64,000 nucleotides of DNA from a virus. The stretch lies in the UHGV virus genome UHGV-1351408; one strand, written 5' to 3'. The notes under the pieces are model-generated. The model worked only from the letters and a program-made list of their open reading frames with translations, was not told the DNA's origin and ran no database searches. Below are positions 2,183-14,616 of this stretch, one piece after another. The first letter of the stretch is position 1, and each line of letters begins with the position of its first letter. The position numbers and the translations under genes are program-made.

Positions 2183-2436
2183 TTTTGAATCTCCAGTTTA
2201 GGACTTTATTTAGTGGGGAAGGTTATTCCCTCCCCGTTGATGCAAATACTAGGTAACCACGTTCAAAGAGTCAAGAAAAATTTTAAAAATATTTTTAGCA
2301 AAACTGTAATGAAACGGGCGCACACGACTACCACAAAACAGAACTATAATCAAGAATTATTTTTCAATCCGCTACAAATTTTTCTGTTGACTTTTATTTC
2401 CAGATGTGGTAGCCTTGTGAGAAATGGCGACATCCC

Positions 2437-2655
2437 CACCTGCACCCACCTACCTGCACAATTCTAAAATGATTTTTCTTGCCCGACCTGAGCGGGGTCT
2501 GCACGTTTTGAAAATGAAAAAGCTCTTTGGAGATTACCTGCACAGTTTGAAAATGAATTTTCTCTTTGGAGTTCAAAATTTTCTCTACAGATTTCTGTCC
2601 AGAACTCTACCTGCACAATCCTGAAATGAAAAAGCCCTCCTTACCTGAAAATTTA
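2437..2655. repeat. Direct-repeat (iteron-like) array in a 520-bp intergenic region
   Basis: Copies of TACCTGCACA-N-TTTGAAAATGA at 2451-2472, 2498-2523, 2534-2557, 2607-2635 and a partial at 2641-2654; two ~34-bp near-tandem units (2499-2532, 2538-2571) also share CTCTTTGGAG. Confidence 0.6.
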
Positions 2656-2701
2656 CCAGATAAGAAAGGCTTAACCTATTGTGAATATTCTACAGAGTTT
2701 C

Positions 2702-3487
2702 TTAGTTCTTTGCGTCTAAGAAGGTTACTTCCGGTGAAGAGAAAATTTCCTCAACATCCTCATCAGTTCTTGCATAGATATATGTATCTGCATCACTGCC
2801 AAATGTTACTGCAATTCTGTGATTGCTCTTCGACAGGTGGGTAACTAGAGCGTTACTTAGAGACATCTTTTCAACCGGAGGGTTACTTTGATGTATCTTG
2901 CCTTTTCTTCGTCTGAAGAGGGTAACTGTATCATCAGTGAACACTACTACACCTGCAAAGTATTCTGGTTCACAGTAGTTCTTCCAACCTGAGCGTAACT
3001 TGTGGTACATCTCACCTTCGTAGACATACAGATACACATCTACATTCTTCATCACCTGATTAATGATAACAGTGACGGCTTGAGGGTCTAGTCCACCGAT
3101 ACCTGCACCAATCATAGGTAACCCAACTTTCTTCAACTGATTGACTTCACAGTATCTGTTAAGCTGTTTCAAAGATGACTCTAAAGCACTGTATCGGGCA
3201 TCTTTACCAGTCTTAAGCTGGGTGTAAAGGTTAGCTATACATCCTTGTCTTAAACGTGCTACAGAGAAATTGCCTAGTAAATTCTCACAGGGCTTGTGGC
3301 CTATGCCACCTGCATACAGATAAACTTCTGTATCAGTCTCGTATGCTTTTGGGTAAAATTTAGAAATCTTGTCAGCGATACCTGCACCCATTAAGTTCAT
3401 ACAGTTGCAACCGTGACCGATGACATCAAACTTACCTTTATCAAATGCTGCAAAGATATCACCGTTGATGATTTTTACAATACCCAT
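2702..3487 (-). CDS. Macro-domain-like (ADP-ribose binding/processing) protein with a ~90-aa C-terminal extension
   Basis: N-terminal pattern GDIF..DVIGHGCNCMNLMGAGIADKI aligns by eye with the macro-domain GDIT..DAIVNAAN..GGGVA region, and a second glycine-rich loop GLPMIGAGIGGLD follows; GGAGA RBS; ATG overlaps the upstream stop (TAAATG). Confidence 0.5.
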   Translation of the reverse strand: MGIVKIINGDIFAAFDKGKFDVIGHGCNCMNLMGAGIADKISKFYPKAYETDTEVYLYAGGIGHKPCENLLGNFSVARLRQGCIANLYTQLKTGKDARYSALESSLKQLNRYCEVNQLKKVGLPMIGAGIGGLDPQAVTVIINQVMKNVDVYLYVYEGEMYHKLRSGWKNYCEPEYFAGVVVFTDDTVTLFRRRKGKIHQSNPPVEKMSLSNALVTHLSKSNHRIAVTFGSDADTYIYARTDEDVEEIFSSPEVTFLDAKN

Positions 3488-3724
3488 TTAACATCTCTCC
3501 CAAGTTTCTTTATCTTCTGAAGGTTTTACACGTTGCCCTTCGTGGTCTACCCAGATACATCCACAACCTTCACAGATTACTGGCATTGCATAGCCAGCTT
3601 TAAAGTCGTCTTCAGTGATAAGACCTTTTAAGTCACCTGTATCACGTCCAAACATTTCAATAGAACAATCTTTGCAGAAATCAGCCATGAATAATTGCCT
3701 CTTGAATGATGATACCTTTACCAC
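3488..3724 (-). CDS. Small cysteine-rich (zinc-ribbon-like) protein
   Basis: 78 aa with CKDC ... CEGCGC cysteine pairs. Confidence 0.45.
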   Translation of the reverse strand: MVKVSSFKRQLFMADFCKDCSIEMFGRDTGDLKGLITEDDFKAGYAMPVICEGCGCIWVDHEGQRVKPSEDKETWERC

Positions 3725-5814: not shown

Positions 5815-6510
5815 TCAATGTTTAACTAACATGGTTTTAATGTGTGGAAGGATTCTGTTTACCTTCTGAACATTCTTCTCTGTATCTTCTATAAAACATA
5901 CTATATTAAAGTAAGGCAGAATGCAAGACTGAATCATCCTCACTTTCAAACTTTCTGCACTTATAGAATTATTCCCAAAACCACGCATAAAAAGCATGTA
6001 GTCATGCTCTGTGTTATGCCTTAAAAACATCTCAGTAGGTATTCTCTGAGATTCACCTCTGGCTGTCAAGAGTCCAATGGCAGCATGATTAGCAATTGCA
6101 TCAATAATATTGAAAACATACGTTGGTTTTGCTCTTACAGAGTCAAGAAGATTAGTGTACTGTGAAAATGACCCATCAATCAATTCTGTTGAGCAATCTT
6201 CGTGATTAAAATTTGTAAGAACACCATCAATATCTGCTAAGATGAGGTTACCTTTTTCTACAAGGTCTTTATTGACTATGACTAAACTGTCACGTCTTAC
6301 ACCTATAGATTGTCCAGTCTCTTTGTCCACAACGTTCACAATTGATTCTGAAGTGTGGAACTCTTCAAGTGAACATACAACTTCTCTTGCAGTATCTTCA
6401 AAATCCCTGCACTGTTCTGAAGTCCATACACAGGAATCAAGACCTAACTCATGAGGGTGCAAGTCGTAAGCATGACACAGGACTTCATCAGACTTTCTTA
6501 ATTTTTTCAT
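5815..6510 (-). CDS. HAD-superfamily hydrolase/phosphatase-like protein
   Basis: LILADIDGVLTN matches HAD motif I (DxDGxL); ATG with AGGT upstream. Confidence 0.5.
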   Translation of the reverse strand: MKKLRKSDEVLCHAYDLHPHELGLDSCVWTSEQCRDFEDTAREVVCSLEEFHTSESIVNVVDKETGQSIGVRRDSLVIVNKDLVEKGNLILADIDGVLTNFNHEDCSTELIDGSFSQYTNLLDSVRAKPTYVFNIIDAIANHAAIGLLTARGESQRIPTEMFLRHNTEHDYMLFMRGFGNNSISAESLKVRMIQSCILPYFNIVCFIEDTEKNVQKVNRILPHIKTMLVKH

Positions 6511-7036
6511 GGTTTACCTTAGAAATGTTTGTTGCAAATTCACATTGAGCAATAACTTTCATGTTGTTATAGACATCTTGAGAATATTTCTTAGCTTTAG
6601 GAATTTTGTATGAATACCCAGCATTATAAGATGCTAAAACTTTTTGTAAAGTCTTCTTTGACTTTGGCTGACCATGTACCTTTGTCCAAAACTCAAGCTC
6701 TTTATGCGTTTCTTTTGCGGCATAATCAAAATCTTTTAAAAGTTTCTTTTTAGCCACATTAGGACTAATTTTGTTACGCTTTACAACAGTCTTCAAGTGA
6801 TTCTGGAAAATACCATAGTCATGTGTCTTTTTATTCTCTACCTTCAGACCTAACTCTGACTCTTGTAAGGCTATAGCAGCTAGAGTGATACCCCAACCTT
6901 TACCCATATTATTCTCACCATACTGGTAAGCTTTTAACATGTTTACTTTTTGGCTAATTGATAGCTCTGGGCAGTCAACTGCATAAGATAAGTGTGCTGT
7001 AAACATTAAGCACAAACCTAGAATCAATTTCTTCAT
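6488..7036 (-). CDS. Secreted lytic transglycosylase (SLT-domain) protein; candidate endolysin or periplasmic muralytic enzyme
   Basis: N-terminal signal peptide MKKLILGLCLMFTAHLSYA; SLT-like catalytic region ALQESELG ... YGIFQ; strong RBS GGAGAACCA. Confidence 0.55.
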   Translation of the reverse strand: MKKLILGLCLMFTAHLSYAVDCPELSISQKVNMLKAYQYGENNMGKGWGITLAAIALQESELGLKVENKKTHDYGIFQNHLKTVVKRNKISPNVAKKKLLKDFDYAAKETHKELEFWTKVHGQPKSKKTLQKVLASYNAGYSYKIPKAKKYSQDVYNNMKVIAQCEFATNISKVNHEKIKKV

Positions 7037-11617: not shown

Positions 11618-13399
11618 TTAAAGCTGCTTGTCAATATTATTTCGAATATCACCAAGAGATGTGTAACCATACTGCTCAGAATCACTAAAGACTAAGCGTA
11701 GAGCACAAGCTGGATGTTCAAGTGCATCTGCAAAGCTTTTGAATCCATAGCCATCTACAGCTTTCAGTTTATCACCATCCCACATAGGTGCTACACCACC
11801 AAAAGCAGACTTCTTAACACCACTATCTGTTTTAGGGTCTTTTGCAAGCATAATCTCTTTACCACCAATGCTTGCAAGAGTTGCTTTAACAGCAAATGCA
11901 AAGGTGTCACGAGTCATGTACTGGTAAGTGTAGGAGCCTACGCCAAACACTACGTTAGAGCTTGCAAAACCCATTTCATACATACGCTTCAGGATTTCGT
12001 TTGCACGTTCCAGTGTGATAGAGTCACCATAGATAAGGCCAATGTGCTCATCCAGTACCTTAAAACCTTTGGAGTTGATAGTCCCTCCGAAGATGTTATA
12101 CAGAGTCTTAATAGCTCCATCAATCTCTGCTACAGGGCGTGTTACAACGTTTGCAGAACCAACCATATAAGCATTTTTCAACATCACTGTATCAGCAACT
12201 TCAAAATCTTCTCTGTCAACAACCATTTCGTAGCCTTCTGACAGTAGCCATCCAGCAATACCATAGCTGATGTTTTCAAGCTTCATATTCATAACAGCAT
12301 TCAACATTGTGTCGCTGGCTTCAAGCTTACTAAGGTGCTCATAATAAGCCTTTTTAGCGCACTCTAAGTGGATTGCTTTATAACCTGTGACAATATGTAC
12401 AGGGTCTCCAGAGTCAGGACGAATTACCAGTTTACCGTCACGTTCCATAATCTCTTTGCGAAGTGCTGGTAAGATTTCTGACACAGTTCTCCAGAAGTTA
12501 TAAGTATCTGAAACAACACTTGCAATACCAGTCGGGTAAGTCTCTGTTAAGAAACGACGGAAGGTCTGCAACTCACCTTTAAAGCGTCTTTCCTCTTCAA
12601 TCAATTCATTACCACCTTCCCAAGCAATGTTTGCACACATTACAGAGTGTTCAGTGGCTGGTACAGAACCACCAATATCAGAGACTTGGTAAGACTGTCC
12701 GTAGATGCGTTTAGCTGTATATACAGCAGGGAAGCTATCAGTCCCTTTAAAGCTGGTCAAGTGACCTACAGCATTAAATGCGTCATCAGTAAAGCCTGAC
12801 ATACCACGCATAGCAAAGTCATGGCACTGATAGGGTAAATGTAAGTCATTGTCACAAGTAAGGTCAGCCCACTTCTTACAGATGCGTTTGTAGTGCAATG
12901 CAATAGTTGCAATGGTACAAGCCTTCCAAATCTCAGCAGAGAAAGCATCTTCCAGATAACCTGCTACCCAATGAAAACCTGAAACAGTGTTCTGGAAGAC
13001 AATCATTGGGACACGCATAGGGACAACTGTGCCTTCTTCTACAGCGTATACTTCAACTGGCAGATAACCTAAGTCGTGAAGTGCTTCCCAATGTTCTCGA
13101 CCAATAGCATCTTTACCCAGAACACCGTTCATGACTTCTAAGATTTCGTCAATTGCTTCTTTTTTGTCACGTTCAAAGAAAGTGGCATTCCAATGGTCTA
13201 TCAAGTAATCTTTAACAAAACGTTGAATACCAAAAGCTACTACACCGTCAATTGCTAAGGGGCTGTTAAACCATTTGTCGCTACGTGGTGTCAGGTTGAA
13301 CATCAAGTACTCTGTTGCGCTAGGATACTGGTAAACATGACCAGATTTGTAAGCATCTGCATTTAAACCTGCTGGTACTGCGTAAAGTGATTTAGTCAT
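11618..13399 (-). CDS. nadV: Nicotinamide phosphoribosyltransferase (NAMPT/NadV family; Namat-like)
   Basis: 593-aa protein of NAMPT size and overall character, paired directly downstream of a Prs-like gene as in known phage NAMPT modules; no individual motif was checked. Confidence 0.8.
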   Translation of the reverse strand: MTKSLYAVPAGLNADAYKSGHVYQYPSATEYLMFNLTPRSDKWFNSPLAIDGVVAFGIQRFVKDYLIDHWNATFFERDKKEAIDEILEVMNGVLGKDAIGREHWEALHDLGYLPVEVYAVEEGTVVPMRVPMIVFQNTVSGFHWVAGYLEDAFSAEIWKACTIATIALHYKRICKKWADLTCDNDLHLPYQCHDFAMRGMSGFTDDAFNAVGHLTSFKGTDSFPAVYTAKRIYGQSYQVSDIGGSVPATEHSVMCANIAWEGGNELIEEERRFKGELQTFRRFLTETYPTGIASVVSDTYNFWRTVSEILPALRKEIMERDGKLVIRPDSGDPVHIVTGYKAIHLECAKKAYYEHLSKLEASDTMLNAVMNMKLENISYGIAGWLLSEGYEMVVDREDFEVADTVMLKNAYMVGSANVVTRPVAEIDGAIKTLYNIFGGTINSKGFKVLDEHIGLIYGDSITLERANEILKRMYEMGFASSNVVFGVGSYTYQYMTRDTFAFAVKATLASIGGKEIMLAKDPKTDSGVKKSAFGGVAPMWDGDKLKAVDGYGFKSFADALEHPACALRLVFSDSEQYGYTSLGDIRNNIDKQL

Positions 13400-13444
13400 C
13401 TTTTAGTCTCTCTCAAAATGGGGCTATGAAGCCCCTATAAAGTT

Positions 13445-14326
13445 TTAATCAAGGTTTGCTACAGTAACTTGACCATAATGTGTTAACCCACGGTCTTTAG
13501 CTTCCCCTAAAGAGTTTGTAGTGTAGATATGGTCAATACCATTGTCAAGTAAGTTTTCAACACCTTTAGAGAAGATACCATGTGTTACATAGAGTTCCAC
13601 ACGTTTTGCACCTGCTTCACGAAGATGTTTAGCTGCCTCTATGAAGGTTCGGCCTCCATCACAAATATCATCAAGAATCATGACGGTTTTATCTGTCAAA
13701 TCAACATCATCAAGGATTCGCATACCAGTAATTTCACCAGTCTTAAGGTTACGCACTTTAGACATTGTGATATATGGTTTATCCACCTCTTTAGCAGTTT
13801 CTGCAATCTTCTTAGAAGCACCTGCATCTGGGGCTACTAAGTAATCAACCAGTGGGTCATTTGCATAGTGGACTGCAATTTCCTTTTGAGGAATACTCTG
13901 GAAGCAGTTAAACAGGTTATCTGGCACATAACTATGAGGGTCAACTGCACAGACTGCACCAAATCCCATTGCATTAACCTGTTTAGCAAAAACCTTTAAA
14001 GCTGCTGCATCACCTTTAAACATGTGACGGTCATATCGTGCATTTGGTAAGTAGTAGAAGATGACAGTCTTTAAAGCATAGTCGTGAGGAATTAAATTAT
14101 CAATTGCTTCTTTAGCAAGTGCCACAGCAAACAATGTGTCCTTATCATAACCTTTTACAATCATAATCACATTGTTGATGGATGATGCTGCATAAGCAGT
14201 AAAATCAACAAACTCTGGTGAAAAGTGCCCACCAATCTCACCAGAAGGGAATTGGATGATATTAAACTCTTCTTCATGAGTTCCTTTAGTTGGTGAATGG
14301 GCTATAACACGGATAGATGTTTTCAT
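13445..14326 (-). CDS. prs: Ribose-phosphate pyrophosphokinase (PRPP synthetase)-like protein; possibly an ADP-ribose pyrophosphokinase (Adps-like)
   Basis: PRPP-binding loop VMILDDICDGGRTF; track ORF begins at a TTG, first ATG at 14326 with GAGAGAG upstream; immediately upstream of NAMPT. Confidence 0.7.
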   Translation of the reverse strand: MKTSIRVIAHSPTKGTHEEEFNIIQFPSGEIGGHFSPEFVDFTAYAASSINNVIMIVKGYDKDTLFAVALAKEAIDNLIPHDYALKTVIFYYLPNARYDRHMFKGDAAALKVFAKQVNAMGFGAVCAVDPHSYVPDNLFNCFQSIPQKEIAVHYANDPLVDYLVAPDAGASKKIAETAKEVDKPYITMSKVRNLKTGEITGMRILDDVDLTDKTVMILDDICDGGRTFIEAAKHLREAGAKRVELYVTHGIFSKGVENLLDNGIDHIYTTNSLGEAKDRGLTHYGQVTVANLD

Positions 14327-14337
14327 AGTTTTCTCTC

Positions 14338-14616
14338 TCAATCAAAAGTTACGTTTGTTACTGCCATTGCAGATTTGCATTTTGCAGGGTCTACAATGTG
14401 ATAAAGTACACTACAGTTGCCTGTGCTGTCTGGTACAGGTTTAACCCATTGTTGCTTGACAGTTGGTTCTCCTAAGTCTTTGTAAGAACCATCTGTAAAA
14501 TTGTTTATCATCTCAAGTGCAATTGGTTCTGGAACATGACCTCGTATCATGTACATCTCACAACCATTACCCCCTTCGCTAACTAATGGTAAAATCTCCC
14601 ACTTTTCTTTAGCCAT
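14338..14616 (-). CDS. Hypothetical protein (92 aa)
   Basis: ORF with ATG start. Confidence 0.4.
   Translation of the reverse strand: MAKEKWEILPLVSEGGNGCEMYMIRGHVPEPIALEMINNFTDGSYKDLGEPTVKQQWVKPVPDSTGNCSVLYHIVDPAKCKSAMAVTNVTFD

Follow-up and report, generated by a model that had tools for sequence, protein, structure and literature searches.

A two-domain macro protein of a FelixO1-like phage as a candidate counterpart of the T4 anti-DarT factor Tk.4 (AdfM)

Two counter-defence activities, resistance to DarTG2 and the recycling of ADP-ribose (ADPR)-1''-phosphate in the face of aRES, have experimental support in a family of phage macro proteins to which a gene long annotated as 'phosphatase' now also belongs. 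The first activity is represented by Tk.4 of phage T4: the tk.4 gene was the single match of a transposon-sequencing approach (HIDEN-SEQ), being conditionally essential on a DarTG2 host, and its clean deletion sensitises T4 to DarTG2; the gene was named AdfM, for anti-DarT factor (10.1101/2025.11.20.689424). Gp104 of phage PhiKZ, likewise called AdfM, strips the ADP-ribose installed by DarT2 from single-stranded DNA (ssDNA) in vitro (PMC13309987), so that an anti-DarT2 strategy based on macro proteins is real in phages. The second activity was described by Osterman et al. for Poa1p-like macro proteins encoded in NARP1 operons (Adpp; gp137 of Vibrio phage Gary), which dephosphorylate ADPR-1''-phosphate; this compound is the product of the NAD+ phosphorylase aRES, and its dephosphorylation by Adpp lets NARP1 rebuild NAD+, whereas NARP1 alone fails against aRES (10.64898/2026.01.28.702374). 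In bacteria, DarG2 combines a macro domain with a C-terminal domain that binds DarT (PMC11825919, PMC11481870). The present analysis concerns a gene of this phage family at positions 2702-3487, minus strand, of a 64,000-nucleotide (nt) stretch of the virus genome UHGV-1351408 (hereafter the window); it encodes a macro domain joined to an orphan C-terminal domain, and a counter-defence role like that of AdfM is its favoured, if tentative, assignment. The gene and its family are already known and widely annotated, and the idea of counter-defence has experimental precedent in close homologues; for the two-domain architecture, its dimorphic cassette and the lineage-wide pairing with a non-adjacent NARP1, no prior description was found.

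The source phage is a FelixO1-like myovirus of the genus Felixounavirus; 245 phage records align with the 2.5-kb stretch around the gene, most of them at 90-96% nucleotide identity. The open reading frame (ORF) had been delimited exactly in the original prediction, made from the sequence alone, and the strings quoted there, GDIF and DVIGHGCNCMNLMGAGIA, are found in the protein. The predicted protein shares 95-98% amino acid (aa) identity with proteins of many Felixounaviruses, including FelixO1 ORF13 (NP_944801), labelled in the 2003 annotation as 'phosphatase; hypothetical 17.5 kD protein in tk-vs intergenic region', in other words as a homologue of the T4 tk-vs protein. It falls into PHROG 335 ('phosphatase'; E 1.2e-113), a family present in ~2,800 phage genomes, and is the product of the sole macro gene that tblastn detects in the window. 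The gene and its parts are as follows:

2702..3487, minus strand: complete ORF (ORF list), 261 aa plus stop, ATG start; two-domain macro protein, orthologue of FelixO1 ORF13
3017..3487, minus strand: macro domain, aa 1-157, of the Poa1p/TARG1/DarG-like class and Tk.4/AdfM type (Pfam, AlphaFold2, Foldseek, identity to Tk.4)
3374..3415, minus strand: H25-G-C-N28-C ... M33-G-A-G-I-A38, predicted first ADP-ribose/phosphate-binding loop (invariant columns and alignment to Poa1p and DarG)
3218..3232, minus strand: N86-L-Y-T-Q90 motif (invariant columns, ungapped HMMER alignment to TARG1, motif table)
3092..3118, minus strand: P124-M-I-G-A-G-I-G-G132, predicted second glycine-rich, diphosphate-binding loop (aligns with PRIGCGLD of TARG1)
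2705..3016, minus strand: C-terminal orphan domain, aa 158-261, with one helix, six beta-strands and a C-terminal helix in the AlphaFold2 model

Residues 1-157 can be assigned with confidence to a genuine macro domain, modelled with the three-layer alpha/beta/alpha fold, as the original prediction had proposed for the N-terminal part. The Pfam Macro profile (PF01661) matches aa 25-141 with 33.5 bits against a gathering score of 22 (E 4.4e-8; profile positions 2-117/118), and the DarG models match aa 19-163 more strongly than the generic Macro profile (NCBIfam, E 1.7e-12; PADLOC, E 1.9e-13), both remaining far under the equivalog cutoff. An AlphaFold2 model of the full-length protein, built on 30 homologues, has a predicted local distance difference test score (pLDDT) of 90.7 and a predicted template modelling score (pTM) of 0.88, and shows the macro fold for residues ~3-157. 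In a Foldseek comparison with the PDB, ranks 1-12 are held by the macrodomains of TARG1, Poa1p and DarG (E 2e-10 to 3e-9; target template modelling score, TM, 0.76-0.87), with human TARG1/OARD1 (PDB 4J5R), a member of the same macro class, as the best fold match (E 1.9e-10, target TM 0.86); there are 242 PDB matches at E<=0.001, and all 50 of the 50 top-ranked matches listed are macro domains or macro-scaffold designs. These alignments span only ~155-178 columns, which corresponds to the N-terminal domain. The profile and structure comparisons that had been suggested earlier therefore single out TARG1, Poa1p and DarG as the closest known families, and not MacroD or PARG.

Within the first loop, H25, G26, N28, C29, M33, G36 and A38 are invariant in 30 homologues; the second loop has the invariant residues P124, G127, G129 and I130, and the glycine-rich stretches G34-A-G36 and G127-A-G129-I-G-G132 are invariant or nearly so. 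Alignment of the first loop of the query (HGCNCMNLMGAGIA..YPKA) with yeast Poa1p (PDB 6LFQ; HSCNCNGSWGGGIA..YPKA) and with DarG of M. tuberculosis (NTVNCVGVMGKGIA) places N28 on the second, catalytically important Asn of DarG (NTVNC) and Poa1p (HSCNC), and His25 at the position of the first; the residue facing C27 is Val or Cys, and both DarG and Poa1p have a Cys where the query has C29. In PhiKZ AdfM the counterpart of N28 is N23, and the N23A mutant is inactive (PMC13309987). Poa1p, a top structural match (E 3.5e-10), shares the motif series closely (HSCNC...GGGIA...YPKA, compared with HGCNC...GAGIA...YPKA here), but overall identity is ~22%, its Ser30 (mutated in 6LFT) corresponds to Leu32, and its role lies in eukaryotic tRNA splicing.

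Judged from these alignments, H-x-C-N-C is what proteins of the Poa1p-like subclass normally carry at this place, and HGCNC is identical in T4 Tk.4; the motif had originally been taken for a divergent one, with cysteines in place of the canonical asparagines of macro domains, and for a sign of altered chemistry. It is true that the conserved Asn has a Cys on either side, and that C29 is invariant across the family; yet the Asn is retained, with His25 and not a Cys at the first Asn position, C27 is replaced by Ala (HGANC) in five relatives (P0010, P0034, P0021, P0024 and P0027), and C29 is shared with DarG and Poa1p, which use no thiol chemistry. A divergent, thiol-dependent macro domain is hardly credible on this evidence, and there is no basis for deducing altered chemistry from the cysteines.

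Among phage proteins, T4 Tk.4 shares 34% identity with the macro domain over aa 3-157 (E 5e-24; 34-37% across the domain as a whole), and the motifs HGCNC, NLYTQ and IGAGIG are identical. The two proteins have in common the macro subfamily, PHROG 335, a Gln at the position of TARG1 Lys84, and their origin from a non-essential early gene of a large myovirus; they differ in architecture, since Tk.4 is a single domain of 155 aa, to which the Felix protein adds an orphan C-terminal domain of ~105 aa. Comparison of the Felix protein with Tk.4-type proteins gives 81-94 bits, with NARP1-linked proteins 46-76 bits, and with the validated Gary Adpp 53 bits. The latter (KNV71_gp137) belongs to the same broad Poa1p-like family, shares the motifs H-x-C-N-C, x-Y-x-Q and G-x-G-x-x-G-G, and likewise comes from a phage with Adps and Namat; it consists of a single domain, and its gene sits between Adps and Namat; in the Felix phage the macro gene is 8 kb away from these two. 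By sequence comparison, the Felix protein is a member of the phage family of T4 AdfM and Gary Adpp, and is somewhat closer to AdfM. PhiKZ gp104 resembles it as a phage macro protein with the conserved Asn (N23, equivalent to N28) and the same proposed biological role, but represents a different, DarG-like lineage (ITVNV, and FPTKD with its Lys), gives only a 23-aa local match (E 0.001) and is imported into the phage nucleus.

The C-terminal residues 158-261 (~100 aa) match nothing known, in agreement with the extra domain of unknown function that had been noticed originally. Modelled alone, this region reaches pLDDT 80 and pTM 0.72, and it also folds with reasonable confidence within the full-length model. 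A 16-sequence profile searched against 1.84 billion representatives recovered only macro fusions of the Ounavirinae-type clade and fragments, besides repeat-protein artefacts; the latter are giant repeat proteins (P0033, P0035, P0036, P0038 and P0039) whose repeats inflate the summed scores and which match many unrelated Pfam families. The fold search of BFVD with the C-terminal domain returned the SUSP2 orthologue alone. A faint hint of a PH domain did not recur among the members, and gave neither a recurrent profile nor a significant fold match.

The two-domain proteins form one clade (bootstrap 93-97; neighbour-joining trees, ~150 columns) that includes the protein of Erwinia phage M7. In M7 gp101 (L010:8998-9780) the first motif reads QGCNC, a Gln taking the place of the His that is invariant elsewhere; the 16-sequence hidden Markov model does not pick up the C-terminal region of this protein, which nevertheless maps to the same PHROG 335 columns and is probably a very divergent version of the orphan domain. 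The C-terminal domain appears to be ancestral to the Ounavirinae-type phages and extremely divergent: identities to the query in the macro and C-terminal domains of the same proteins are 79 vs. 53%, 54 vs. 23%, 43 vs. 22%, and 40 vs. 19%, indicating that the C-terminal domain diverges about twice as fast, and it retains only two invariant residues. This profile suits a structural or binding module with surface turnover; it does not suit a further catalytic site or a surface conserved for binding nucleic acids. Another C-terminal fusion in the family is found in the metagenomic protein P0027 (339 aa), where a Tk.4-like macro domain is followed by cREC_REC (PF20274, 'cyclic-phosphate processing receiver'); its domain composition hints at a link to cyclic-phosphate or RNA-end chemistry.

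Most of the gene, including the whole C-terminal domain, is exchanged as a cassette in related phages:

2654..3345, minus strand: segment replaced in the alternative allele (P0009 type), from ~codon 48 to just past the stop (blastn of metagenomic contig L008 against the window; L008:10143-10834)

Contig L008 aligns with the window at ~95% identity over 14115-3902 and at 85% over 3695-3345, shows no DNA similarity from 3345 to 2654, and resumes its similarity at 2654; its ~95%-identical 10-kb backbone includes the NARP1 genes and rIIA/rIIB. The protein of this second allele (allele B; P0009) has 42% aa identity to the window protein (allele A). Allele B is present, at >=95% identity, in 13 sequenced Felixounaviruses (BPS17L1, Si3, finno, ECML-1, phiWec172/174/177 and others), while all other records have <=42% identity to it and nothing falls between 42% and 95%; the record VpaE1_ev035 carries allele B, and VpaE1 allele A. 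A discrete dimorphism of a single gene within a conserved backbone is a pattern known from loci under diversifying or balancing selection, and it contrasts with the conserved NARP1 genes nearby.

On balance, the gene is read here as encoding an early-expressed counter-defence enzyme, the Ounavirinae counterpart of T4 Tk.4 (AdfM) within the Poa1p-like family PHROG 335, that would remove DarT2-installed ADP-ribose from phage ssDNA; we assign this role a probability of about 0.45. It is favoured because of the macro identity and DarG-like character of the N-terminal domain, the orthology-grade similarity to Tk.4 together with the function of Tk.4, the ranking of the scores, the anti-defence signatures of the locus, and the architectural parallel to DarG2. 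These signatures are the position at the end of the early rIIA-rIIB block, the swap of the locus as a cassette while the NARP1 genes stay conserved, the two discrete alleles, and the faster evolution of the C-terminal domain. The idea raised originally, of a phage copy undoing immunity based on ADP-ribosylation, agrees with the closest characterised homologue, T4 Tk.4/AdfM, which T4 needs against DarTG2 (10.1101/2025.11.20.689424). In the proposed mechanism, the macro domain (aa 1-157) would grip the ADP-ribose moiety via its two glycine-rich loops and cleave the attachment at ribose C1'' using the environment of Asn28, His25 and Gln90, without the catalytic lysine of TARG1 and DarG; the likeliest substrate would be the ADP-ribose that the DarT2 toxin of DarTG2 puts on ssDNA thymidines of the phage, and its removal would let phage DNA replication and packaging go ahead. 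The C-terminal domain (aa 158-261) would most probably serve as a clade-specific, fast-diversifying binding or specificity module, whose partner could be the toxin, the DNA substrate or some other factor of the host; its logic would then be that of the C-terminal domain through which bacterial DarG2 binds DarT, without homology between the two.

The comparison with DarG2 (NF048014; PDB 5M31, 5M3E, 5M3I) extends to a DarG-like macro domain (E ~1e-12) and to the order of an N-terminal macro domain and an additional C-terminal domain. With 47 bits against an equivalog cutoff of 250, no catalytic Lys and no adjacent DarT, the Felix protein lies outside this equivalog, and its C-terminal domain is unrelated in sequence to that of DarG2 and has no structural match. 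A bolder version, in which the C-terminal domain binds a toxin or defence protein, so that the fusion becomes a convergent and complete mimic of DarG2 that both erases the modification and blocks its writer, with the two deeply divergent alleles matched to different variants of the host toxin, is unlikely.

Several observations weigh against the AdfM-like role. The invariant Gln90 occupies the position of the catalytic Lys84 of TARG1 and of the catalytic Lys of DarG (..LITK84K.. vs. ..LYTQ90L..), and Gly131 aligns with the second member of the TARG1 catalytic dyad, Asp125 (ungapped alignment; of the TARG1 sequence used in alignments and trees, only residues 61-144 are confirmed by the HMMER alignment); the catalytic-type residues of TARG1 and DarG (K84 or the Lys of FPTK, and D125) are thus absent. 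Going by these residues, a DarG-like mechanism cannot apply as such, and any hydrolysis by the macro domain must follow a non-lysine mechanism; the same is true of T4 Tk.4. The evidence for Tk.4 is genetic only, and its removal of ADP-ribose from DNA is a deduction worded as 'seems likely' (10.1101/2025.11.20.689424). T4 AdfM scores 77 bits against Gary Adpp, about as high as against the Felix protein, and the same family contains a validated phosphatase; the node that groups the Felix clade with Tk.4-type proteins in the neighbour-joining tree has <50% bootstrap support. The NARP1-adjacent macro protein of Acinetobacter phage vB_AbaM_phiAbaA1, which has the Tk.4-type motifs HGCNC, NAYTQ and IGAGLAGG (Table S1, 10.64898/2026.01.28.702374), groups at bootstrap 91 with the 'Tk.4' of Acinetobacter phage Konradin, which is not NARP1-associated; within clades the genomic context therefore switches, and AdfM and Adpp are inseparable by sequence. 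The C-terminal domain varies in charge (isoelectric point, pI, 4.6 to 9.5), NARP1 and the macro gene co-occur in each Ounavirinae lineage examined, and no literature linking Felixounavirus with DarTG2 was found. The family is a continuum as far as its sequences tell, with substrates not assignable from them alone, and a bifunctional enzyme is plausible. Two candidate discriminators were set aside: the motif classes HGCNC/NLYTQ/IGAG vs. HQ[AC]NC/N[LV]YGQ/IGCG are undermined as a functional classifier by the phiAbaA1 protein, and net charge or pI gave no pattern in either domain that would separate DNA-acting from small-molecule enzymes.

The alternative closest to hand concerns a NAD+ reconstitution pair upstream of the macro gene:

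11618..14341, minus strand: NARP1-like NAD+ reconstitution pair, on the same strand as the macro gene and ~8.1 kb, or ~14 genes, upstream of it
13445-14341, minus strand: Adps-like gene, 298 aa (Pfam Pribosyltran/Pribosyl_synth)
11618-13399, minus strand: Namat-like gene, 593 aa (Pfam NAPRTase/NAMPT_N)

The gene order, Adps-Namat-(two small ORFs)-rIIA-rIIB-...-macro-terminator-like hairpin, is the same in FelixO1, in three divergent metagenomic relatives (L006-L008) and in Erwinia phage M7. T4, in contrast to the Felix phage, is not known to carry NARP1. The macro protein could accordingly act in trans as an Adpp, converting ADPR-1''-phosphate, the aRES product of RES-domain NAD+ phosphorolysis, to ADP-ribose, from which the phage's own NARP1 would rebuild NAD+; this is compatible with the AdfM-like role, and we consider it a strong rival, though the less probable of the two. 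Support comes from the Poa1p-like macro proteins of NARP1 operons, which are ADPR-1''-phosphate phosphatases required to beat aRES, from the cloning of aRES systems from E. coli, Klebsiella and Enterobacter, relatives of the hosts of this phage, from the presence of Adps-like and Namat-like genes on the same strand of the window in a synteny that is fixed in FelixO1, L006-L008 and M7, and from the match of H-x-C-N-C to the yeast phosphatase Poa1p; Acinetobacter phages have a Tk.4-like macro gene adjacent to NARP1, and in Vibrio phages the NARP1-AP operon directly follows rIIA-rIIB. Yet the macro gene, ~14 genes (8 kb) away from Namat, falls outside the limit of two genes by which NARP1 association was defined, and Table S1 of that preprint contains no Felix-like phage, nor any phage of Escherichia, Salmonella or Erwinia (10.64898/2026.01.28.702374). 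The score against Gary Adpp (53 bits) is lower than those against Tk.4-type proteins, and the Gary motif variants differ (HQCNC, NVYGQ, IGCGLAGG). It is also not obvious why a small-molecule phosphatase should be fused to a hypervariable domain, or why its cassette should be swapped beside NARP1 genes that remain ~95% identical, and the co-occurrence of NARP1 and macro gene throughout one phage subfamily is a single evolutionary observation. Erwinia phage M7, considered as a natural experiment with a macro gene and without NARP1, has NARP1 as well and is uninformative; the FelixO1 label 'NAD synthetase' leads, by FelixO1 coordinate arithmetic, to a presumed window counterpart that is a SegE-like GIY-YIG endonuclease.

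Two further readings move the substrate away from both phage DNA and ADPR-1''-phosphate recycling by NARP1. The macro protein might reverse other forms of ADP-ribosylation, on protein or RNA modified by a host or phage ADP-ribosyltransferase (ART; CmdT-type modification of mRNA, or Alt/Mod-like self-modification), or it might destroy or sequester immune signals derived from ADP-ribose, such as gcADPR or His-ADPR. Macro domains as a class handle both 1''- and 2''-linked ADP-ribose conjugates (PMC9503650), TARG1 as the best structural match works on protein as well as nucleic-acid ADP-ribose, and the early-gene position suits counter-defence; but the scanned ORFs and the FelixO1 annotation contain no ART gene, no activity on such substrates is on record for any member of the family, the anti-Thoeris proteins known from phages work as sponges or by blocking active sites and not as macro hydrolases, and the two validated activities of the family are DarTG2 resistance and ADPR-1''-phosphate hydrolysis. 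This reading is decidedly unlikely, and degradation of cyclic ADPR-type signals, which the original prediction had raised, is unsupported here. Still less can be said for housekeeping in RNA repair, whereby the protein would clear ADP-ribose 1''-phosphate or Appr>p left by a 2'-phosphotransferase of the Tpt1/KptA type; such a function would mirror Poa1p and explain the 'phosphatase' label, and it agrees with the Poa1p-like motif, a HAD-PNKP-like gene in the same operon, the fusion of macro and cREC 'cyclic-phosphate processing' domains in one relative, and the many tRNAs carried by the phage. With neither an RNA ligase nor KptA/Tpt1 in the FelixO1 annotation, and with allele swapping and a hypervariable C-terminal domain that are unlike a housekeeping enzyme, it is very improbable.

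FelixO1-like phages are widely used in typing, biocontrol and therapy of Salmonella and E. coli, and knowing which defences they disarm helps to predict their host range. The lack of a clean sequence boundary between anti-DarTG2 and Adpp activities calls for caution in annotation. Should the C-terminal module turn out to confer specificity or inhibition, the protein would be a natural two-pronged anti-toxin in compact form, and its two alleles would be a ready-made system for studying phage-defence co-evolution.

The macro gene is the last of the rIIA-rIIB early block, and its immediate surroundings contain two candidate signals, in addition to the preceding small ORF:

3495..3501, minus strand: Shine-Dalgarno-like GGGAGAG, read from the sequence, 7 nt 5' of the macro ATG and within the end of the upstream ORF
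2632..2672, minus strand: terminator-like hairpin with T-run, 30 nt past the macro stop (consensus scan, pattern match only)

Promoter and terminator calls are consensus matches only; the hairpin probably closes the early transcription block rIIA-rIIB...macro. The preceding ORF (3488-3724, minus strand), whose TAA directly adjoins the macro ATG, encodes a Cys-rich protein of 78 aa (CxxC ... CxGC), or 66 aa from an internal ATG, that belongs to PHROG 2210, of unknown function; it is 98% conserved in L008 despite the different macro allele there. As a conserved partner of the macro protein it was rejected, since it is kept only in close relatives and is replaced by unrelated small genes in distant ones. 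Rfam and tRNA scans of the macro gene neighbourhood found nothing.

In the same early block, positions 5815-7036 (minus strand) encode a protein of 182 aa homologous to T4 Vs.1 (its counterparts in relatives are SLT-like) and a HAD-PNKP-like protein of 231 aa that is called 'polynucleotide kinase' in the FelixO1 annotation; neither is Pfam-significant in its window copy. Outside the Felix-like phages, the NARP1 cluster of Vibrio phage 166E36-1 has two differing macro 'phosphatase' genes, one (L009:3919-4359) just upstream of Adps and very divergent (~26 bits to the query), the other (L009:6001-6471) between an HNH endonuclease gene and Namat. The gene-free region of ~500 nt that directly follows the macro gene contains three to four local direct repeats at 2425-2644, plus strand (TACCTGCACA..N..GAAAATGA; units of 29-34 nt, spacing 39-84 nt); they have no Rfam match, their exact decamer has no other occurrence in the 64 kb, and they may be regulatory sites. 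At 273-302, on both strands, a perfect hairpin with a 13-bp stem (TTACCCCTAGACC..GGTCTAGGGGTAA) is flanked by T-runs on each strand, and looks like a bidirectional terminator between convergent genes.

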